Positions 5,977-64,000 of a stretch of DNA of 64,000 nt are shown in pieces. The position numbers and the translations under genes were made by a program. This DNA comes from Deltaproteobacteria bacterium (GTDB lineage: Bacteria > UBA10199 > JACPAL01 > GCA-016699445): assembly GCA_016699445.1 (NCBI GenBank), contig CP064976.1, positions 1,897,125-1,961,124 of the forward strand. Reading direction: 5' to 3'. The notes below the pieces were generated by a model. The model searched no databases. It was not told the DNA's origin and saw only the letters and a program-made list of their open reading frames with translations. Position 1 is the stretch's first letter. Each line of letters opens with the position of its first letter.

Positions 5977-8126
5977 ATGAAAGAAAAAATACTCGAATTT
6001 ATTGAAAAAAATAAATTTTGGACACGTGTTGTTGGAATTCTTCTTTTCTCCTTTCTGACATCCTTTGCGATGAATGTGACCTGGTCCGAGATCCCGTCGG
6101 ATTTGGAGGTGGGCAAGATTGCACGACAGGATTATCACGCAGATAAGGATTATGAGATTATTGATCATGAAGAAACCGACAAGCTTAAAGATCAAGCCGT
6201 CGAGGATGTGATTCCCGTTTTTGATTGGGATGAAGATCTGGAAGATCTGCTGGATGAAAAGATTGTGGAATCCAGAAGTGTTTTGGAGCCTTGGCAAAAA
6301 ACAGGAATTTTGATTCGCAATATCCATGATTTAAATAAACCTAAAATTCTCATCAAAGATCTCGATTCGATTTTATCGCTGGAGGAAGCCCGAAAGATGA
6401 AGCGGATCAAGGTTGGAAACAATCAAGAGCTTCGAGCCAATCTTTTCTTTAACGAAGATGAGTATCAGGAGATGCAGGATAAAGCTGCTGATTCTGTCAT
6501 GCCCATTATCATTAAGGTGCAAGCTGGTGAATCTATTATTCGAAATGGAGATCGCTTTGAGGCGCGGCATCTTAAAATCCTCAATGGTATTCGTGAGGAG
6601 AGAGAGTTGTTTTTTGGAAAGAGCCGCACCTTTGGTTCTTTTTTCTTTGTTTCGTTATTTATCGGCATCTTTCTTTTTGTTTTTGAAAAAACATCTTTCA
6701 AGATGCGTTTGAAAGATAAGGATTTGGCTTTTTTAGGAACCTTGCTCATTTTATTTATCGTGCTTGAAAGAAGTTCTATTATTATCAGTAATTCCACTCG
6801 AGGTTTTCTACCATTTTCGATGTCTCTTTCGGATTTTTATCCAGCCATTCCTATTGCAGCTGCAGCTATGATTGCGCGTTTGATGTTGCCGGTCCCTGTG
6901 GCTCTCTTTTTTGCTCCTATTTTAGCGGCTTTTGCGAGTTTGGTATTACAAAGTGATTTGTCGATGATGCTCTATTATCTTTCAGGCGGGATGATGGGGA
7001 TTTGTTGGGTCAAAGGTGTCAAAACCCGAAGCCAAATTTTAAAAGTGGGTTTATGGCTTGGAGGTCTAAATGTTTTATCACTCTCAGCCATAGATTTCTT
7101 TTATATGAATTCTAGTTTGAGTTTGATGTCTCCTTTGGAGCTGGGCATGAAGTTGCTCTTTGCTTTTTTAGGAGGTCCGCTAGCGTCTATTTTTGTTTTA
7201 ATTTTAAGCCCGATTTTTGAAAATCTTTTAATTACCTGACTCCAATTAAGCTGATTGAATATGGAAGTCTGAATCACCCTCTGCTGCGCGATATGATTGT
7301 ACAGGCCCCAGGCACTTATCATCATAGTCATATGGTGGGAACGTTGGCAGAATCTGCCTGTGCAGCGATTGGGGCGGATTCTCTTTTCGCCCGCGTGGCT
7401 TGTTATTTTCATGATATAGGAAAGATGAAAAAATCGGGATATTTTATTGAAAATATGCCGATTGGTGAAGATCGACATGCGATTTTAAGTCCTTCGATGA
7501 GTGCCTTGATTATTGTTTCTCATGTGAAGGATGGAATTGAATTGGCCAAAGAACATAAACTCCCGCAGAAGATTATTGATATTATTCCTCAACATCAGGG
7601 TACAAAACTCATCAGTTATTTTTTCAATAAAGCAAAAGAAAATGAAAACAAGGATCTGCATGTCGCTGATGAGAGAGAGTTTCGATATCCAGGGCCAAAG
7701 CCGCAAACACGTGAAGCCGGAGTCATTCTTTTGGCTGATACGATTGAAGCGGCTACTCGTGCATTGAAAGATCGATCTCCAGCGCGGCTTGAAGAAGTTG
7801 TGCGCAACATGATTAATAAAAATTTTATTGATGGTCAGTTAGATGAATGTGAACTGACGCTCAAAGATCTTCATGTGATAGGAAAGAGTTTTGTACGCAT
7901 TTTGATGGGGATCTATCACAAACGCATTGAATACCCACCCGATGCCCAAGAACTCCAGGCTCGTGCACAGGTACAGCGGGTTGAAGATGAAAATGGGGGA
8001 TCGAATGCCGATAAATATAATCAACAAACACCCATCAGCTCGGAGTCACTCTCAGACTCTCTCAAAGGTGCGAAAAATTCTTCAAAACATCTCCGTCCAG
8101 TTGGCGGTGGAAAATCTGGAAATTAA
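5977..8126 (+). pseudogene. 7TM receptor with intracellular HD hydrolase domain (PgpH/YqfF family), frameshifted at the 7TM/HD junction
   Basis: 5977..7239 encodes the extracellular plus 7TM part. 7293..8126 encodes the HD domain (PLLRDMIVQAPGTYHHSHMV, YFHDIGKM). The HD frame is already open from 7221 (KSFNYLTPIKLIEYGSLNHPLL). The frames rejoin with one extra base in the T4 run at 7226-7229. The 3' end is uncertain because it overlaps ybeY. Confidence 0.75.
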
Positions 8127-8427: not shown

Positions 8428-10055
8428 ATGATTCTTTCGCTTCTTTCAGGTTTGATTTCTGCATTCAGTTTGCCCACTTCGTTTGGAAAACTATGGCCTG
8501 ATCTTGGGTTTTTATCCTGGTTTTCGTTGGTTCCGCTTTACCTTTCTATTCGAAAAAAAAGAGCTCAAGGTAGTTTTTTAAAAGGGTTTGTGTTTGGTGT
8601 TTTTTATTTTGGAACGTCACTTTACTGGATCACGATTGCTCTTTTCCGATATGGAGATGTGCCGTTTTTGGGGAGTGTAGGCGCTTTGATGGTCTTGTCT
8701 TGTGTTCTGTCGATTTTTACGGGTTTGATCACATATTTTTCTGTGTGGGTGCATCGTCGCGGTGGGCCTATTTTTTGGGCTTTTCCATTGAGTTGGGTGA
8801 GTTTTGAATTTTTGCGAAACTATTTTCCTTTTCAAGGATTTCCTTGGGCCAATCTGGCTTATAGTCAAAGATCTTTTGGCGAGTTGATTCAGTCGCTCGA
8901 TATTTTTGGGGTTTATGGAATTATTTTTATTATCGTCCTGATTAATGCCTCTTTGGGTGAGGTGATTTATTTTTTTATTCGAGAATGGATGGATAATGAA
9001 GAGGTTGTTGGCCACAAAAAATGGGGTTCTCCCTGGGTGGCAGTTGTTATTTCCATTTTGATGATGGTGATATTGTGTTTTTATGGAAATTTTCGTCAAA
9101 AAGAAGTGCGTGAACTCATTTCGAAAAATTCTTTTTTGCGCGTCGGTCTTGTGCAGGGCAATGTTTCCCAAGATGAAAAGTGGTTAGAAGATAATGTTGA
9201 TTCGATTATTCAAAGACACATTTTTTTATCGGAAGAGGTGCAGAAGGAAAGTCCTCAATTAATCATCTGGCCCGAGTCGTCATTTCCAACGGTTATTCCA
9301 CCGGAGAAAACAGAAATTGAACTTTTGAAAAATATCCAAGCTCCTTTGCTGATGGGAATGCTGACTTATGATGGTGTCATGCCGGATGACTGGCCGCCAC
9401 CATCACCACAATCTTATGAAGGGGAGTCGTTTCAGATGCATAATGGGGCGGCGTTGATTGGAGCGGGAGGTCATGTTCAGGCTTGGTATTTTAAAAAACA
9501 TTTAGTGCCGATGGGAGAGTATATTCCTTTTAAAAAGCTGTTTTTCTTTATGGATAAAATTGTGCCTGCTGCGAGTGATTTTGTGCCTGGAAAAGATTTT
9601 CATTTGTTAACTATCGAAAATCATTCGTTTGGTGTGACGATTTGTTATGAAGATCTTTTCCGGAAATCAGTCGTACATTCACAAAAAATGGAGCTGATTT
9701 TTTGGTTAATCTCACCAATGATGCTTGGTACGATCAATCATCGGCTCTCTATCAACATTTTGATTTTTCAAGATTTCGAGCGATTGAAAATCGCCGATCG
9801 ATGGTACGAGTGACCAATACCGGCATTTCAGGCGTCTTTAGTCCAACAGGTGACGTTATTGATTCTCTCACACCGTTTCATGAAGAGACAAAAGTGATTG
9901 CCGTTCCGCTGGTAAAAATAGAAACTTTTTATCAAAAATACGGAGACCTCTTTGCTTGGGCTTGTGTTACATTTTTAGTTTTGTTACTTGGAATTTCTTT
10001 TTTACATAAGGATGAAACATGCAGAACGATGTCAAAAGAAAGCTTGAAGATTTAA
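8428..10055 (+). pseudogene. lnt: apolipoprotein N-acyltransferase Lnt, frameshifted in this assembly
   Basis: 8428..9813 holds the membrane domain and the CN-hydrolase N-part (GLVQGNV, IIWPES, VTICYEDLF). 9702..10055 holds the C-part (LTNDAWY, RAIENRRSMVRVTNTGIS). They rejoin if the A6 run at 9683-9688 is A7. The T6 run at 9998-10003 may also be under-called, which would end lnt at a TAA just before the prfB RBS. Confidence 0.8.
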
Positions 10056-11116
10056 AGAGAAATCAGCCCCTCTGCGGAGGAGGCTTTGACTTAGAGTCTA
10101 AAAAACTCCGACTCGACGAACTAGAACATCTCACCGCCTCTGATACTTTTTGGAATGATCCTCAAAAAGCCGCTGTGTCTCTTAAAGAACTTGATCAGCT
10201 AAAGGCTGATTTTGCGATTGATAAGAAGATGAGTGAAGGCTTGTCTGAAGTGGAATCTATTTTCGAACTACTGGAAGCTGGCGATGATGCCGAGCTTGAG
10301 GCGGAAGCTCAGGTGAAACTGCAAGATTTGGAGAAAACTATTAGCGATTTGGAATTTCGCCAAATTCTTTCCGGACCCAATGATAATTCGAATGCGATTT
10401 TTTCGATCAATGCAGGTGCGGGGGGAACGGAATCCTGTGATTGGGCCGAAATGCTTTTACGCATGTATCGTATGTGGGCAGATAAACATGGGTATAAAAA
10501 TGAGATTATCGATTTTACCCCAGGAGATCAGGCGGGGTTTCGATCGGTGACGATGATTGTCGAAGGGCCTTATGCGTTTGGATATTTGAAGGCTGAGATT
10601 GGTGTGCATCGGTTGGTACGTATTTCTCCGTTTGATGCTAATAAGAGACGGCATACGTCGTTTGCATCGGTGTTTGTGCTTCCAGATATTGAGCAAGAAA
10701 TTGATATTCAGGTGAATCCTGCGGATTTGCGTATTGATACTTTTAGATCTGGTGGTGCGGGTGGGCAAAAGGTTAATAAGACGGATTCTGCCGTACGATT
10801 GACTCACTTGCCGACGGGAATTGTTGTGGCTTGTCAAAATGAACGCTCTCAGCATCGCAATCGGGATATCGCGATGAAAATCCTCAAAGCGCGTCTTTAT
10901 GACCTCGAGATGGAAAAGAAGAATAAGGAAAAAGAAGCCATTGAAGATAGTAAGAAAGAAATTAAATGGGGTTCTCAGATTCGTTCATATGTTTTGCAGC
11001 CCTATCGACTGATTAAGGATCATCGTACGGATTTTGAAGTGGGAGATCCTGATCGAGTTTTGAATGGGGATCTTGATGGTTTTATAAAGGCTTATCTCTT
11101 AAGCTTGGCTTCGTAG
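10019..11116 (+). CDS. prfB: peptide chain release factor 2
   Basis: SPFDANKRRHTSFASV and the GGQ motif in RSGGAGGQKVNKTDSAVRLTHLPTGIVV. The post-shift N-terminus DLESKKLRLDELE is present. In this assembly the gene reads as one frame, although a canonical +1 frameshift cassette is present (see findings). Confidence 0.9.
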   Translation: MQNDVKRKLEDLKRNQPLCGGGFDLESKKLRLDELEHLTASDTFWNDPQKAAVSLKELDQLKADFAIDKKMSEGLSEVESIFELLEAGDDAELEAEAQVKLQDLEKTISDLEFRQILSGPNDNSNAIFSINAGAGGTESCDWAEMLLRMYRMWADKHGYKNEIIDFTPGDQAGFRSVTMIVEGPYAFGYLKAEIGVHRLVRISPFDANKRRHTSFASVFVLPDIEQEIDIQVNPADLRIDTFRSGGAGGQKVNKTDSAVRLTHLPTGIVVACQNERSQHRNRDIAMKILKARLYDLEMEKKNKEKEAIEDSKKEIKWGSQIRSYVLQPYRLIKDHRTDFEVGDPDRVLNGDLDGFIKAYLLSLAS

Positions 11117-11232
11117 TGATGTTCTCAAAATGAGGAAAAGATTCCCCTTTCTCTGTAGTTATCCACAATTTCAAAAACTATAAATAATATATAATTCAAA
11201 TAGTTAAGTCGGTGCCTGGCACCAGTGTTATT

Positions 11233-11248
11233 TGGCATATGTATTGCT
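11233..11248 (+). promoter_or_regulatory. sigma-54-type -24/-12 promoter candidate (TGGCAT-N5-TTGCT)
   Basis: It fits TGGCAC-N5-TTGCW, with GG at -24 and GC at -12. It ends about 28 bp upstream of the lipoprotein ATG at 11276. A GGTGCC-T-GGCACC palindrome lies at 11211-11223. Confidence 0.35.
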
Positions 11249-11275
11249 TTGGATAAGGATCCTAGGGACAAAACT

Positions 11276-14203
11276 ATGAAAAAATTATCATTTTATGCAC
11301 TCCTTCTTACCCTTCACCTGACCCTCTTAGTGGGTTGTTCTGGAAGTGGGGCGCCTACCGGAGGCCAGCAAACGAATCTCACACCACCAGCGGGCTTAAC
11401 GTGTACACCTTCTTCAGGAGCGAGAGGGGATAGAGTGACATGTCAAGGGCTGACGCAAACAGAAGGTTGCAATATATTATTTGATACACAGTTGGTCCCA
11501 CGTTCGGTCATTACGTTTGCAGCTTCTGGTTCGAGTACAACATTGGGTGCGTCTTCAGTGGGTGGAAATAATTTTACCTTTCCCATTCCTCCCGCAGCGA
11601 ATGGTCTTTATCATGTAAAAAAAGTTTGTGGCGATCAGATGACGACTTTGGCTCAAGTGTCGGTTGTCAATCGTGGGACTACTTCAGGTAGTGGTGGTAG
11701 CAGTGTTCCTCCATCTCAATATGCGGAATGTTCTGCTGGAAGCGATCAATGTGGCGTGAATCAAGTGTGTCGCGAAAATCACTGTGTTCCCTCGTGTAAT
11801 ACTGCTTATGATTGCGGCAGTGGTCAAATCTGCCAAAATTTTCAGTGTGTGGATAACACTCATATTGAGTGTGGTGACGCTGCCCATCCTGCAGCTTGTA
11901 GTAACGGGCTTGTTTGTTATCATGGACAGTGTAATCCCTGTCTGACTTCAGATCCGAGCCAATGTTCTCGGGACCAACCTGTGGCTTATCGGGGGAATAT
12001 TTGTCGGACAACCTCTTCAACATCATCTCCTATTTTAGGATTGTGCGGTTCTTGTGATAACACTTCACAATGTGGAGCAGGGCTTGCGTGTGTCTCAGGA
12101 AGATGCGGTGCTTGTACTACTAATTCCCAGTGCAATGCAGGAAACTACTGCAGTGCTGGTACTTGTAGAGACTCAGGTGTTAATAATGCACGTGTTAATT
12201 TTTCTGTGACCCAAGCTCCAAGGTCGACAAGCCTTTTAAGGCTTTCTTGGACTATTGAAGGTATTCAAACAGCTTCTATTCAAGATGCCTATGTCTATGG
12301 CCCTTTTGGAGTGAGTGATTGTTCAAATGTATTAAAAACATCTGAAAATGCAGACTACATCAGTAGTGAATTGCCACTGGCAAATGGGACGCCTTGTGTA
12401 AGTACTACAGACTCAAATGGCCGTACGACATGTGTCTCCGATACAGTTGCTCATGTGTTGTCAATTTCTTCTCTGGATCCAGTAACAAGTCGTGACACAC
12501 CGCCTGCAGCAGATTCCTCGCTTGCACATCCTACAGAGCCAGCAGGGATATTGCCTGGTCCAAGTCCAAGTATGACATGCCGTATTCCTTTAAGAGGTCA
12601 GCTTCAAAGCACTGTCTATACAAGAATGAAAGTGAGCCCTTCTGTTTTTCGTCTAGTTATTAAAACGCTGGATGGTCAGATTTTTATAGGGGAGAGTCGC
12701 TATACAGCTGATGGTGCTGATTTACATGTGGAAGATGTCAATATAGATTATACTAGACCTCAGTTTACAATTCGGGGTTCGTATACAAGATCTAGTGATG
12801 GAATACCTAGTTTTGATGGATGTCTTGGCGGAACGTACTCAGATAATTCAGATACAGCAGGTGTGGGAACGGTCATTTTCACTAAAACTTGTTTGTTTCC
12901 TACTAATGGCGATCTGCCAATAGTTTCTATTAATGTTCCTACAGCCATACCAGGTGTTATTTCTTCGGAAAAACAAATCGGATTTGATTGTTATTATGAC
13001 TCTGAAGATACATTTTTTAACTTTCAAAATGTGTATGCATCAGGGGCAATATGTGCCAATCATGATCAAATTAGTTCTTTAGCTGGACAAACCTTACATC
13101 TCTGTCCTGACGGGAGTCTTCAGTTAACAACGCATATTCGGAGAGCTTGTAATATTAACGTGAACGGTGAGCCTCTCTTTGAGACTCCAAAAAATAATCC
13201 ATGGTTTGTCAAATTTCTAGTATCTCAGTATTCAGCTGCAGGAGGTTGTTCCGAAACAACTGGCTTGATCAATGTAGATGGTAGTGTTCGGTCTGGTCTT
13301 CAAGTATTACCTTCTTCTGGTGAAATACAATTTGATAATCGTCAGACAAGGAATCTTAGTTGTAATTCTTACCAGATGGCTATTACAGATGGGCCATCCT
13401 TTGACATTGAAACACCATTCTTTACGGGAGATGCCTTAATTCAAGTGGTCAAAAATTTTAATGCTACAAATTGGTCTTATGATTACGTTTTATCTGATAC
13501 TTATTGGGATGGAGGTACTGATTTACAGTATTGCGCTAGACCAGGAGGTCTTCTTGGTGAGTCTGGTGTATGGCTCTATCTTCGTGATCATGACCGCATT
13601 GAAAGACATTTAGATGTTCCTTTTGGAAATACTCCAGATGGTTTATATTGTAGTTTTGGTGGAGGAAATTACCATAGTAGCGACGATGGTGTAACTGGCT
13701 GTTCCAAGTATAATGGTCATTTAGTGGCTGATATTCAAACTAGAGGGGTTACCTCCTTTGATGTTAGTTGTTGTGCATATGGTGAATGGTCTCATGGTGG
13801 AGTGGAAAGGGATCCTCCTCTAGATGGAATTCAGGGACACTATGGGGAACAGGCAGGTTCTGTATGTGCTCCGGGTGGCAGATTGTTTCGATGGAGTTAT
13901 AACTCTGTACCACCTATTAGTCCTTCAGGTGGAGCTGTATCAAATCCCTTTGATCATGTTATCTATGGAGAGGTTGTTCGATGTGGAATTATGGCTCCAG
14001 GTATTTTAGCTGGCCCTGGAACACGCACTAGTGTTGCCTTTGACTTTACAAGACCTATGAATGGTCGCTGTGATTATCCGGATAGAGATCACGTGGATCC
14101 TGATGACTCAGATCAAAGTGATTGGCCTCTACTATGGCATGGTTACCCCGTATTGCCTTTAGGGACGACCTACCCTTTAGGTATATATACTGCACCTCGA
14201 TAG
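11276..14203 (+). CDS. large secreted lipoprotein (~975 aa) with an N-proximal block of cysteine-rich repeats and a C-terminal domain without recognisable family
   Basis: Signal peptide plus lipobox LLVGC|SGSG. Residues ~150-320 carry at least six C-x(3-5)-C-x(4-6)-C-x(3-4)-C repeats, for example QCGAGLACVSGRCGAC and QCNAGNYCSAGTC. The start was moved to MKKLSF behind the SD AGGGA. Confidence 0.7.
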   Translation: MKKLSFYALLLTLHLTLLVGCSGSGAPTGGQQTNLTPPAGLTCTPSSGARGDRVTCQGLTQTEGCNILFDTQLVPRSVITFAASGSSTTLGASSVGGNNFTFPIPPAANGLYHVKKVCGDQMTTLAQVSVVNRGTTSGSGGSSVPPSQYAECSAGSDQCGVNQVCRENHCVPSCNTAYDCGSGQICQNFQCVDNTHIECGDAAHPAACSNGLVCYHGQCNPCLTSDPSQCSRDQPVAYRGNICRTTSSTSSPILGLCGSCDNTSQCGAGLACVSGRCGACTTNSQCNAGNYCSAGTCRDSGVNNARVNFSVTQAPRSTSLLRLSWTIEGIQTASIQDAYVYGPFGVSDCSNVLKTSENADYISSELPLANGTPCVSTTDSNGRTTCVSDTVAHVLSISSLDPVTSRDTPPAADSSLAHPTEPAGILPGPSPSMTCRIPLRGQLQSTVYTRMKVSPSVFRLVIKTLDGQIFIGESRYTADGADLHVEDVNIDYTRPQFTIRGSYTRSSDGIPSFDGCLGGTYSDNSDTAGVGTVIFTKTCLFPTNGDLPIVSINVPTAIPGVISSEKQIGFDCYYDSEDTFFNFQNVYASGAICANHDQISSLAGQTLHLCPDGSLQLTTHIRRACNINVNGEPLFETPKNNPWFVKFLVSQYSAAGGCSETTGLINVDGSVRSGLQVLPSSGEIQFDNRQTRNLSCNSYQMAITDGPSFDIETPFFTGDALIQVVKNFNATNWSYDYVLSDTYWDGGTDLQYCARPGGLLGESGVWLYLRDHDRIERHLDVPFGNTPDGLYCSFGGGNYHSSDDGVTGCSKYNGHLVADIQTRGVTSFDVSCCAYGEWSHGGVERDPPLDGIQGHYGEQAGSVCAPGGRLFRWSYNSVPPISPSGGAVSNPFDHVIYGEVVRCGIMAPGILAGPGTRTSVAFDFTRPMNGRCDYPDRDHVDPDDSDQSDWPLLWHGYPVLPLGTTYPLGIYTAPR

Positions 14204-14230
14204 ATCTTAAGAAGAGATATTTCTTTAAAA

Positions 14231-14262
14231 AAGCCGGAGGCTTCCCTCCGGCTTTTTTGTTT
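14231..14262 (+). terminator. rho-independent terminator after the Cys-rich lipoprotein
   Basis: GCCGGAGG-CTTC-CCTCCGGC followed by TTTTTTGTTTT. Confidence 0.65.
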
Positions 14263-14328
14263 TCTGCCGACGACGCCTGACTTGAATATTGACTTGCAGC
14301 TTCATCTTGGACAAAACCACCCCCTTCT

Positions 14329-15726
14329 ATGGAACCAACTACAACATCTAGCGAATACGAAAATCGGTTGAAACGTTTGGAAGAGCTCAAAGCTCAAGGG
14401 ATCAATCCTTATCCAAATGGATTTCAAGTTACGCACACAACACACGAGATTAGTGAAAATTATGAAAAGCTTTCGGGTGAAGAGCTCGAAAAAATCGAAA
14501 CGACTTTTAGTCTAGCGGGTCGTATCATGATGGTACGAGCTTTTGGAAAAGCTGCGTTTATTCGCATCAAAGATCGTAAAGGGTATTTGCAGCTTTTTAT
14601 CGATCAAAAAGGTGTCGATGCTGAAACGTTTGCTCTCTACAAAAATCTCGATATCGGAGATTTTATTTTTGTTTCTGGAAAATTATTTCGCACCAAGACC
14701 AACGAGCTGACCTTGCGCATTGAAACTCTCAAGTTTGCTGGAAAAGCTTTACGACCCTTACCTGAAAAATGGCATGGGCTTCATGATGTCGAAATTCGTT
14801 ACCGTCAGCGGTATCTGGATTTGGTCGCCAATGATGATGTGCAAAATGTTTTTCGTAAGCGTGCCAAAATCGTCCAGCAGATCCGAGAGTTTTTTATCGA
14901 TCGGGATTATATCGAGGTGGAGACTCCTATGATGCATCCTTTGGCAGGAGGGGCTGCGGCCAAGCCTTTTGTCACGCATCATAATACTCTCAATATGGAA
15001 CTGTATTTGCGCATTGCCCCTGAGCTTTATTTAAAACGCTTGGTTGTGGGTGGCTTCGAGCGCGTTTTTGAAATCAATCGTAATTTTCGTAATGAAGGCA
15101 TTTCGACTCAACACAATCCAGAATTTACGATGATTGAGTTTTACCAATCGTATGCGACGTTTGAGGATTTGATCACGTTGACCGAAACTCTTTTTTCACA
15201 ATTAGCTCAAAAAGTGTGTGGAAGTGATGTGGTTCCGTACCAAGGAAAGGAACTTTCTTTTAAAGCTCCTTTTGCGCGCATGACTCATGAAGAAATGATG
15301 AGAGTAGGAGAGAAGAATATTATTCAGCCTACTTTTGTGACGGATTTCCCTCTGAAAGATTCTCCTCTGGCTCGAAAGAATGAAAAGAATGGTGAGATCT
15401 GTGATCGGTTTGAGCTTTATGTAGCCGGCATGGAAGTGGCCAATGCATTTTCAGAGCTGAATGATCCCATAGATCAAAAAGAACGTTTTCTGGCTCAAGT
15501 GGAAGCCAAGAAAAAAGGTGATGATGAAGCCATGCCTTTTGATGAGGATTATATTCGTGCTTTGGAGCATGGGCTTCCTCCGACCGCTGGAGAAGGGATT
15601 GGGATTGATCGTCTTGTCATGCTTTTGACAGATCAACCTTCCATTCGTGACGTCATCTTGTTCCCTCTGATGAGGCCTGAACACAAGACAGAAAATAAAC
15701 CAGAAGATAAGATGCCTCAAAGCTAA
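14329..15726 (+). CDS. lysS: lysine--tRNA ligase (class II)
   Basis: Full-length LysS with class II motifs: FRNEGIS, ELYVAGMEVANAFSELNDP, GLPPTAGEGIGIDRLVMLL. Confidence 0.95.
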   Translation: MEPTTTSSEYENRLKRLEELKAQGINPYPNGFQVTHTTHEISENYEKLSGEELEKIETTFSLAGRIMMVRAFGKAAFIRIKDRKGYLQLFIDQKGVDAETFALYKNLDIGDFIFVSGKLFRTKTNELTLRIETLKFAGKALRPLPEKWHGLHDVEIRYRQRYLDLVANDDVQNVFRKRAKIVQQIREFFIDRDYIEVETPMMHPLAGGAAAKPFVTHHNTLNMELYLRIAPELYLKRLVVGGFERVFEINRNFRNEGISTQHNPEFTMIEFYQSYATFEDLITLTETLFSQLAQKVCGSDVVPYQGKELSFKAPFARMTHEEMMRVGEKNIIQPTFVTDFPLKDSPLARKNEKNGEICDRFELYVAGMEVANAFSELNDPIDQKERFLAQVEAKKKGDDEAMPFDEDYIRALEHGLPPTAGEGIGIDRLVMLLTDQPSIRDVILFPLMRPEHKTENKPEDKMPQS

Positions 15727-15883: not shown

Positions 15884-16126
15884 ATGAATAAGGGTTACTC
15901 AGTTTATATCATGAGCAATCAAAATAATACGGTTCTCTATACAGGTGTAACCAACAATCTTGAGCGTCGCATTGGAGAACATAAAAATGGAGTGGGAGGA
16001 TATTTTACATCAAAATATCAGGTTACCAAACTGGTTTACTATGAAACAACCAATCGGGTTGAAGAAGCTCTCGCCCGAGAGAAACAAATTAAAAAGGTTC
16101 TCGGAAAAGAAGATTGGCCTCATTGA
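15884..16126 (+). CDS. small GIY-YIG nuclease-superfamily protein (YhbQ/COG2827-like)
   Basis: VYIMSNQNNTVLYTGVTNNLERRIGEH...KLVYYE is the GIY-YIG core at the N-terminus of an 80-aa protein. There is no convincing SD. Confidence 0.6.
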   Translation: MNKGYSVYIMSNQNNTVLYTGVTNNLERRIGEHKNGVGGYFTSKYQVTKLVYYETTNRVEEALAREKQIKKVLGKEDWPH

Positions 16127-16314: not shown

Positions 16315-16332
16315 AGCTAATGTCCTTTGAAA
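16315..16332. repeat. direct repeat, copy 2 (AGCTAATGTCCTTTGAAA), containing the lolC start codon
   Basis: Identical to 15721..15738. The ATG inside it at 16320 is the lolC start. Confidence 0.8.
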
Positions 16333-17539
16333 CTTTTATCGCCAAACGTTATTTTCAATTTTCGGGAAATCGTCCTCCGCTGTTGACGTTTTTGATTCGT
16401 ATCTCACTTTTTTCCATCGCTATTTCTGTGTTTGCCCTCGTGTTTGTTTTGTCGATCATGGAGGGTTTTGAGAAGGATTTTCAAAAACGTATTTTGGGAT
16501 TTCGTGCGCCGTTATTGGTGGTGGTCCAGGCTGATCAAGATATTTCGACTCTGGAAGAGGATTTGAAAAGATAAAATCAATTACCAGGGTTATTCCTTTT
16601 GTTGAAGGTGAAGCTATTATTCAGGCAGATAATGGAGTGACCTTAGGAATGCGTGTGCGAGGGATTGGTGAAAAGCCGGATGTGAGACGAGTCGGCGAGA
16701 TTGAGAGTCAAAAAGATTTTATCTCCAATTCGCTCCTATTGGGAGATGAATTGGCTTCTACACTTCGGGTACATCCTGATTTTAACGAAAATATGAAATT
16801 GATTTTCCCTCTAGGAGATGTCGGGCCTACAGGGGATATGATTCCTCATGTCCGGGATGTGCATCTGACGGGTCTTTTTCATTCGGGGTATTATGATTTT
16901 GATCACAAATATGGGCTGATTTCCTATCAGGAGGCTCGCAAACTTTTTGGGGTAGAAGGGAAGCAAGGGTTTGAAGTCTGGTTTGAAAATATTCATGAGA
17001 CGGAAAATATTAAGAAGCAGGTTCAATCGATTATAGCTCAAGGCTCGCCGCTCGCCGCTCAAAGTAATATTGAGACCTGGACGGATCAAAATCCAAAACT
17101 TTTTGCTGCTTTGAGACTAGAGAGAATAGGGATGGGGGCTTTGTTGGGTGTTTTGCTCTTGGTGGCTTCGTTTAATATCTTCAGCGTATTGTCTCTGACT
17201 GTCGTCGAAAAGAAAAAAGACATGGGATTGTTGAAAGCTTTAGGTTTGAGGCAAAAAGCGATCCGAAAAATTTTTCTTTCTTATGCACTGAGATTAGCTT
17301 TTTGGGGTGGAGGTGTGGGTGGGGTTTTGGGTTTGATCAGTGTTTTAATAGGGATTCGTTATCCTATAGATCTGCCTCCTACTTATTATATCGATAAACT
17401 TCCTCTTTCGTTTTCGCCTTCTTCACTTTTGTTTGTTTTGATTGTGCCTTTTATTGTTTTGGCAGCTGCCTACTACCCTGCAGCAAAAGCCTGTGAAGCT
17501 GATCCTATCACGGCATTGCAAAGAGAGGGGCTGGAATGA
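16320..17539 (+). pseudogene. lolC: lipoprotein-releasing system permease LolC/LolE family (FtsX-like), frameshifted in this assembly
   Basis: 16320..16574 is TM1. 16637..17539 carries the periplasmic MacB-like domain and the FtsX C-terminal TM bundle. The frames rejoin if the A4 run at 16566-16569 is A5 (EEDLKKIKSITRVIPFVEGEAI). Confidence 0.8.
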
Positions 17540-63483: not shown

Positions 63484-63638
63484 TGCAAACAGCGGTGCCA
63501 AAAAAAAGTGACTTATTTGAAATAAATCGTCTTCTTTTTGGACTCTCGAGTTTGAAAATAAAACTTTTATACGAGTTTTTGTATGGAAAATGCTGGCACC
63601 AGCATTGCTCTTAGTCTCGCAAGAAATTGGGAGAGATG

Positions 63639-64000
63639 TATGAAACAAAAATTCATTTTTATTTTTCTAGTGGTGTTATTTGCAAAAAATCTTTTTTCAC
63701 CCAAAGATCTTTTTTCAAAAGAACCCACGATTCAACAAGTGCAAGCAGAAGCTATCCGTTATTTGGGAATGGATACTCAAGACATGGATAGTTGGAAAAG
63801 TCGCTCGCGATGGTCAGCGGCTTTGCCCAGGCTACAAGCGAGTTTTCAAAGAGATCTTAAAGATCTGATCTCTCTCTCGAGTCGAGATTCTGTTTCTGTC
63901 AGTGGTGGTGATGTCACTGTGGGGCCCACTCAAAATAATTTTGATCAAAATTTTAATCAGGGAACTGCCATCGATATTAAAGCTGTCTGGTATTTAAATG
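63639..64000 (+). CDS. 5' end of a secreted protein gene continuing past the window
   Basis: The ATG at 63639 encodes MKQKFIFIFLVVLFAKN (signal-like). The frame is open to the window edge. No family is recognised. Confidence 0.35.

Follow-up and report, generated by a model that had tools for sequence, protein, structure and literature searches.

What the long gene between prfB and lysS encodes, and by what means it is switched on, are the questions raised by a stretch of 64,000 nucleotides (nt) from an uncultured Deltaproteobacteria bacterium (GenBank assembly GCA_016699445.1, contig CP064976.1, positions 1,897,125 to 1,961,124 of the forward strand). This whole stretch is referred to below as the window, and positions are those of the window. 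The initial annotation, made from the sequence alone, described the gene as encoding a cysteine-repeat lipoprotein behind a sigma-54-type promoter. Computational analysis of the locus and its relatives leads us to favour, with moderate confidence, a monocistronic gene dependent on sigma-54 and an activator, the product of which would be a displayed lipoprotein for binding or recognition, carried on a cysteine-rich stalk and a chain of immunoglobulin (Ig)-like domains.

A sigma-54 promoter upstream of the lipoprotein gene is well supported by the conservation of its sequence. The near-consensus -24/-12 element (Table 1) lies where it was first placed, and the pattern TGGCAY-N5-TTGCW has 2 matches in the window versus 0.21 expected. 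The strict pattern TGG[CT]A[CT]-N5-TTGC[AT] has exactly one match on the coding strand in each of the loci L001-L008, for a chance expectation of 0.01-0.05 matches per locus as estimated with shuffles. The match sits 24-31 nt before the ATG of the family gene and, in L006 and L007, about 68 nt before the first gene of the operon. Altogether, the element is found directly upstream in 7 of the 8 distinct family loci, and in all seven GG and GC occur at the exact sigma-54 spacing; these loci range from 42 to 59% GC and differ in their upstream genes (prfB, tsaD, spoVR or a Big_5 gene). In L001 and L002, the closest orthologues, TTGGCAY-N5-TTGCTT is invariant within an otherwise diverged spacer after prfB, and the only differences of the element in the sister strain L011 are TGGCAC and one spacer base. 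Likewise, TGG(C/T)AY-N5-TTGCT is present at the equivalent place in the loci of P0004 (after tsaD), P0005 (after prfB), P0006 (after a Big_5 gene) and P0007 (after prkA-DUF444-spoVR), so that family genes with unrelated surroundings have the element in common. In the spacer between prfB and the gene, the + strand showed no sigma-70-like site.

Compared with classical sigma-54 promoters, for which the consensus is YTGGCACG-N4-TTGCW (PMC2725144), the element agrees in its GG/GC spacing, which is canonical, in the T preceding TGG, in TTGCT at -12 and in the distance of about 12 nt that separates it from the predicted start; this start would be near 11258-11260 according to the usual spacing. The target differs, as it is a surface-type lipoprotein and not a nitrogen, flagellar or stress gene. 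Transcription by the sigma-54 RNA polymerase obligatorily requires an enhancer-binding ATPase (PMC2725144), and the control by an enhancer-binding protein already proposed for this gene is implied by that established biology. With a sigma-54 promoter at this place the gene would therefore depend on such a protein and be silent until the activator fires: the polymerase would transcribe the monocistronic unit from the element only once the enhancer-binding ATPase is activated, and the transcript would end at the hairpin downstream of the stop codon.

The reading frame has to be consistent with this promoter. The listed open reading frame (ORF) runs from GTG 11225 to 14203, which corresponds to the 992 amino acids (aa) initially annotated; this GTG is upstream of, and its frame overlaps, the proposed promoter, and because the 992-aa frame runs through that promoter the two claims are mutually incompatible. 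Judging from the Shine-Dalgarno-like sequence, the NCBI record and the N-termini of the orthologues (MKK), the initial methionine of which aligns with it, ATG 11276 is the biologically sensible start and the protein has 975 aa. In other respects the description of the gene held: its ORF is the longest in the window, it is flanked by prfB and lysS according to Pfam, it ends in a strong terminator, and the terminator and the confirmed neighbours agree with a single-gene unit.

Table 1. Features of the lipoprotein gene and its flanking sequences in the window.
Feature	Position	Strand	Remarks
Conserved 26-nt block after the prfB stop codon (TAG 11114-11116)	11122..11147	+	TTCTCA-AAA-TGAGGA hairpin/inverted repeat, then GGAAAAGATTCCCC
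Palindrome GGTGCC-T-GGCACC	11211..11223	+	GGTGCCTGGCACC; holds a second CTGGCAC (-24-like) motif without a -12 partner
Sigma-54 -24/-12 element TGGCAT-ATGTA-TTGCT	11233..11248	+	TGGCATATGTATTGCT; GG 11234-11235, GC 11246-11247
Shine-Dalgarno-like TAGGGA	11263..11268	+	7 nt before ATG 11276; equivalent AGGA kept in L001 and L002
Coding sequence, 975 aa plus stop	11276..14203	+	Same as NCBI QQR79769.1 (IPJ69_10530, hypothetical protein of a 'Deltaproteobacteria bacterium' metagenome-assembled genome, MAG; contig of 2.75 Mb)
Predicted lipoprotein signal peptide (aa 1-20) and lipid-modified Cys21, lipobox L-V-G-C	11276..11338	+	Ser at +2, then Gly/Ser-rich tether
N-terminal four-Cys beta domain (aa 41-131)	11396..11668	+	Signature CTP..G..V.C....GC
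Six tandem four-Cys units, putative disulfide-bonded stalk (aa 151-299)	11726..12172	+	Cys positions
Beta-sandwich (Ig/MG-like) chain	12173..13480	+	D1 aa 300-390, Pro-rich linker aa 391-430, D2-D4 aa 431-735; AlphaFold2, Foldseek
Distal C-terminal region (aa 736-975)	13481..14200	+	Family motifs in alignments
Intrinsic terminator	14226-14259	+	15-bp stem, 7 G-C pairs, then T-run

The N-terminus of the protein agrees with the lipoprotein assignment. The signal peptide, MKKLSFYALLLTLHLTLLVGC, with the make-up MKK-LSFYALLLTLHLTL-LVGC, contains a basic n-region, a hydrophobic h-region and a lipobox of the form [LVI][ASTVI][GAS]C, and each of the seven other relatives of full length likewise has a lipobox (P0002-P0007 and P0009; LSAC, LVSC, HLSC, SLGC, LAAC, FLGC and FWGC). 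The product would be exported and lipid-modified at Cys21, and its transfer to the outer membrane is probable because the residue at +2 is serine. The small four-Cys beta domain that follows varies least of all parts among close orthologues (with P0002 and P0003 it shares 76 and 51% identity, respectively) and has no match in Pfam. In an AlphaFold2 model built from a 9-sequence alignment, which is essentially all beta with a mean predicted local distance difference test (pLDDT) score of 61.8, this domain is formed by strands (pLDDT 45-69). The same N-terminal module (C-EP..PGETVVC..GC) was observed in a 217-aa lipoprotein adjoining P0009 (L009 789-1442). The distant family members (L009/L010 and L006/L007) occur in small operons with other lipoproteins, and lipoproteins with Big_5 domains flank P0006 and P0009.

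Residues 152-297 hold 24 Cys arranged in exactly six units, in agreement with the "at least six" tandem four-cysteine repeats reported initially. Each unit has four Cys in about 21 aa, typically as C-x5-7-C-x5-C-x4-C, with an expanded fourth unit; every confidently modelled copy is a short beta-hairpin, and family members have between 0 and 6 copies. The proposed resemblance to EGF or antistasin-type knots had to be abandoned, as neither family matched the repeat region in profile searches even at E<=10. The best profile match was DUF7107 (PF23416), an uncharacterised Cys-rich module of 48 residues, one model length of which corresponds to two four-Cys units and of which no mention appeared in the literature searched. 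This profile gave 24.1 bits with the isolated repeat region (gathering score 24.6) and 10.9 bits with the whole protein, while the equivalent repeats scored 29.9 bits in P0002, above the gathering score, and 13.8 bits in P0003. The myxobacterial Myxo_Cys_RPT model TIGR04201 gave 18.8 bits with the repeat region, 15.4 bits with the whole protein (both under the cut-off of 25) and 16.0-16.6 bits with orthologues; weaker matches were to the eukaryotic EB (E=0.018 in P0002), Dickkopf_N and Dumpy modules. Membership of the repeats in a common bacterial family is only half borne out by the hidden Markov model searches, with DUF7107 and TIGR04201 matching at or below their curated thresholds.

Beyond the repeats, the model shows tandem beta-sandwich domains, with pLDDT values of 75-95 for repeats 5-6, D1 and D2-D4 and of about 30 for the Pro-rich linker. 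The C-terminal ~650 aa had been described as beta-rich, Cys-poor and of no nameable family: the model is indeed beta-rich and this part matched no Pfam, NCBIfam or PDB family, but it holds 20 Cys, many of them conserved across the family. Searched against the PDB with Foldseek, the model gave only generic matches to tandem beta-sandwiches, including macroglobulin (MG) domains of TEP1 and alpha-2-macroglobulin, CSF-1R, nectins, the Ig-like domains of PrgB and adhesin extender repeats. In the distal region the family shares the motifs C-x-H-x-S-x-DG-x3-C-S-x-Y, V-x-CC-x-YGE and GE-x3-C together with an acidic RP-x3-CD-x-PD...D-x-DD tail; this region has no sequence relative in the PDB.

The family is very rare. 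A profile of the C-terminal 676 aa retrieved only 8 proteins from 1.84 billion representative proteins. Word-indexed homologue searches gave 3 proteins at first, and the nine-sequence profile only 2; scanning of species-genome contigs returned only the MAG already carrying P0002, and no further family member was found in two metagenome scans. A word-indexed search with the repeat region alone returned nothing, not even the region itself, and is uninformative on the abundance of the repeats. Pfam and NCBIfam contained nothing above threshold for the whole protein, and scanning the nine family members one by one added only DUF7107, TSP_3 (in P0005) and TIGR04201. The full-length members share a plan consisting of a lipobox, the small four-Cys beta domain, a variable spacer and the conserved C-terminal region, the spacer having 0-6 Cys units or, in P0005, a thrombospondin-type-3 repeat and, in P0007, a Pro/Ala linker.

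The gene is located directly after prfB in four lineages and, by sequence comparison, diverges far faster than this neighbour: in L001, L002 and L005 the identity of PrfB is 88.5, 91.4 and 75%, respectively, and that of the lipoprotein 52, 35.5 and 25%. Conservation among close orthologues is highest in the membrane-proximal domain and the Cys stalk and lowest in D4 and the Pro-rich linker. Compared with the sister strain L011 (95.8% protein identity), the ratio of nonsynonymous to synonymous divergence (dN/dS) amounts to 0.32 in the gene as opposed to 0.04 in lysS. These values derive from few substitutions against a mosaic background (dS 0.03 in prfB and 0.33 in lysS). Of the 39 amino-acid changes, 32 together with a 2-aa indel fall in aa 606-954, and most differences between the strains are found in aa 606-886. 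Along window positions 10175-15726, dS against L011 also changes within the gene, from 0.01-0.03 in the N-terminal half to 0.41 in aa 736-805, suggesting recombination with a boundary inside or just after the lipoprotein gene. The divergence pattern, small as the counts are, is as expected of an exposed protein with its distal end under relaxed or diversifying selection.

The order predicted from the anchor outward is the small beta domain, the six mini-hairpin units, the four Ig/MG-like domains and the fast-evolving distal domain, with all 48 remaining cysteines potentially able to form disulfides. Stalk and Ig chain would act as a spacer and the distal region as the working end, in an adhesin- or receptor-type role. 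The idea of a stalk comes by analogy with TraA, the outer-membrane-exchange receptor of Myxococcus xanthus, because its TIGR04201 repeats have been proposed to form a rigid stalk presenting the recognition domain (PMC3325183). Both proteins are extracytoplasmic and membrane-tethered, with tandem Cys-rich units of about 21 aa and a rapidly diverging head, the match to TIGR04201 being weak (E about 1e-3). Unlike TraA, the lipoprotein has neither a PA14 domain nor a MYXO-CTERM tag, its C-terminus being acidic and Pro-rich without a hydrophobic tag, and it is anchored by an N-terminal lipid whereas TraA is anchored by its C-terminal tag, so that the polarity is reversed. Its score with the TraA model NF033759 is 7.4 bits (cut-off 750), and identity with TraA was rejected on the PA14, MYXO-CTERM and NF033759 results alike.

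A second comparison is offered by multi-Ig surface lipoproteins and adhesins, such as the Lig proteins of Leptospira, which are multi-Ig-domain surface lipoproteins and adhesins. Lig, the Ig-like domains of PrgB and adhesin extenders share with the present protein a lipid or cell-wall anchor followed by a beta-sandwich chain that projects a distal functional region, and the corresponding Foldseek matches were 6xi3, 8beg and 4e9l. The lipoprotein differs from them in being outside Big_1, Big_2, Big_5 and other Ig-like Pfam families, in the Cys-knot stalk inserted and in its disulfide-rich domains. It represents a very rare new family, the parts of which are of well-known types, and does not amount to a new type of system. 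A bolder proposal, which we regard as speculative and rather improbable, is that it is a rapidly diversifying, sigma-54-gated surface receptor for the recognition of self, prey or substrate, its distal domain being either a novel fold or a novel binding module that depends on calcium or metal, and the whole a functional analogue of TraA with reversed polarity.

Several observations weigh against a sigma-54-controlled, displayed binding protein. Surface exposure and a periplasm-facing position are indistinguishable from sequence, and the analysis revealed neither a ligand or partner nor a binding-domain family. The structural matches are generic (template modelling scores, TM <= 0.15), the distal region modelled alone gives a pLDDT of 46.6 and most of aa 738-975 is poor in the full model; the dN/dS values carry the small numbers and mosaic background already mentioned. 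As for the regulation, the P0009 locus (L009 and L010) is devoid of a recognisable -24/-12 element, a six-frame scan of the window showed no GAFTGA or RpoN-box motif, and neither rpoN nor an activator gene is present in the window or beside the gene in any locus. The -24/-12 match might not be a working promoter, with the gene expressed by read-through from prfB or from an unrecognised housekeeping promoter and the motif serving another purpose, a possibility favoured by the exception of P0009 and by the small conserved hairpin after prfB, which is a weak terminator at best. Read-through from prfB is not the general mechanism, however, because the motif keeps its distance to the start codon where the upstream genes differ (tsaD, spoVR, prfB). 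Together with the exact GG/GC spacing in the seven loci, the lack of a sigma-70-like site and a further site of perfect sequence (CTGGCAC-N5-TTGCT), located 31 nt ahead of the gene for another secreted protein in the window, this makes a non-functional element highly improbable, the least probable of the three alternatives considered.

The other two alternatives concern the protein. The distal domain could be an enzyme, e.g., a hydrolase or peptidase, displayed on the stalk, with the conserved His, Asp, Cys-Cys and Glu residues as active or metal site: H800, D804-G805, C809, C832-C833, Y835-G836 and G898-E899 are invariant among P0001-P0005, and the distal motifs recur in P0008 and P0009. Nevertheless, P0006 and P0007 lack His800 and the CC-x-YGE motif, no Pfam, NCBIfam or PDB family matches, the region, with its predicted beta strands and numerous conserved Cys, is compatible with a further disulfide-stabilised sandwich, and it is the part that changes fastest between strains, unusual for an active site; an enzyme is thus considered unlikely. 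It is very unlikely that the protein is a periplasmic protease trap of the alpha-2-macroglobulin kind made of MG-type domains. The alpha-2-macroglobulin of Escherichia coli is also a lipoprotein, and TEP1r (E=1e-5) as well as the Salmonella and E. coli alpha-2-macroglobulins are among the best Foldseek matches. However, these matches have TM-scores of about 0.1, no better than those of Ig-domain receptors and adhesins, no sequence match exists in the PDB, and the protein has 975 aa versus 1450-1538 residues in the matched chains. Identity with alpha-2-macroglobulin was rejected on the absence of both the CxEQ thioester motif and, in the model, the alpha-helical thioester domain. All three alternatives are less likely than a displayed binder or receptor.

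Other elements were detected upstream of the gene. The palindrome pointed out in the initial annotation just before the -24/-12 element is present, but a conserved regulatory site was not borne out: it is missing from the two closest orthologous promoters (L001 and L002) and was rejected as a conserved activator site or family feature, while its retention in L011, a 98%-identical sister strain, is uninformative. A near-identical copy, TCGGTGCCAGGCAC, precedes the operon of P0009 (L009 and L010); there, the 14-mer TCGGTGCC(A/T)GGCAC (L009 558-571 and L010 164-177) matches window positions 11209-11222 at 13 of 14 positions, and this recurrence is upstream of the one family locus lacking a recognisable -24/-12 element. 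The 26-nt block after prfB, located between about -110 and -135 relative to the predicted start, is kept in the window, L001 and L002 amid diverged flanks; its consensus folds into a stem of 6 bp, in which one pair changes from U-G to C-G and none is compensatory, and a similar 9-mer, TCAATATGA, occurs at -94 in L003. From its sequence this block may be a 3' hairpin of prfB or an activator site. A site resembling those of the integration host factor at 11194-11206, the position of which fits, is not evidence, as the window has 121 such matches versus 118 expected by chance. No RNA family of Rfam was found in the window.

The second sigma-54 element of the window, CTGGCACCAGCATTGCT (CTGGCAC-CAGCA-TTGCT; 63594-63609, + strand), precedes an ORF which starts at 63640 with the signal peptide MKQKFIFIFLVVLFAKNLFS and extends beyond the end of the window; its first 120 aa have no Pfam match. 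In L008 (1180-5872), the gene encoding P0007 is located directly downstream of the prkA-DUF444-spoVR cluster, which is yeaG/yeaH/ycgB-like, and has its own sigma-54 element. The E. coli counterparts of this cluster respond to nitrogen starvation, and this neighbourhood may hint at the inducing condition.

The gene order confirmed with Pfam is lnt, prfB (10019-11116), the lipoprotein gene, lysS (14329-15726), lolC/E-like permeases, an ABC ATPase and bamA. Between lysS and the lol genes lies a small ORF of the GIY-YIG nuclease family (15884-16126, + strand), which is also present in L011 (PF01541) and absent from L001, where the permease gene directly follows lysS; it is possibly a mobile insertion. 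In prfB, a classical site for programmed +1 frameshifting was recognised (AGGAGG, then CTT TGA C at 10084-10090; window 10050-10090). Compared with L011, the window is short of one A in a homopolymer near 10054-10057 (GATTT-AAAGAG versus GATTTAAAAGAG), by which the frames are fused into one ORF of 365 aa, probably an assembly error. In addition, three genes are each split into two ORFs, namely those for a 7TM-HD receptor (5977-8126), lnt (8428-10055) and the first lolC/E-like permease (16320-17539). These genes are intact in L011 (716, 534 and 406 aa, respectively) and in L001, suggesting homopolymer frameshift errors of the assembly and not pseudogenes.

As it stands, the gene encodes an uncharacterised envelope protein of an uncultured organism, without a tie to an open question. 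Still, it provides a clean cross-locus example of what would be sigma-54 control over a surface-type lipoprotein, a kind of target that has been less noticed than nitrogen, flagellar and stress genes, and it defines a very rare family with a modular organization of anchor, stalk, Ig chain and quickly evolving head. Should this head turn out to serve recognition, kin recognition of the TraA type in myxobacteria could usefully be compared with the family.

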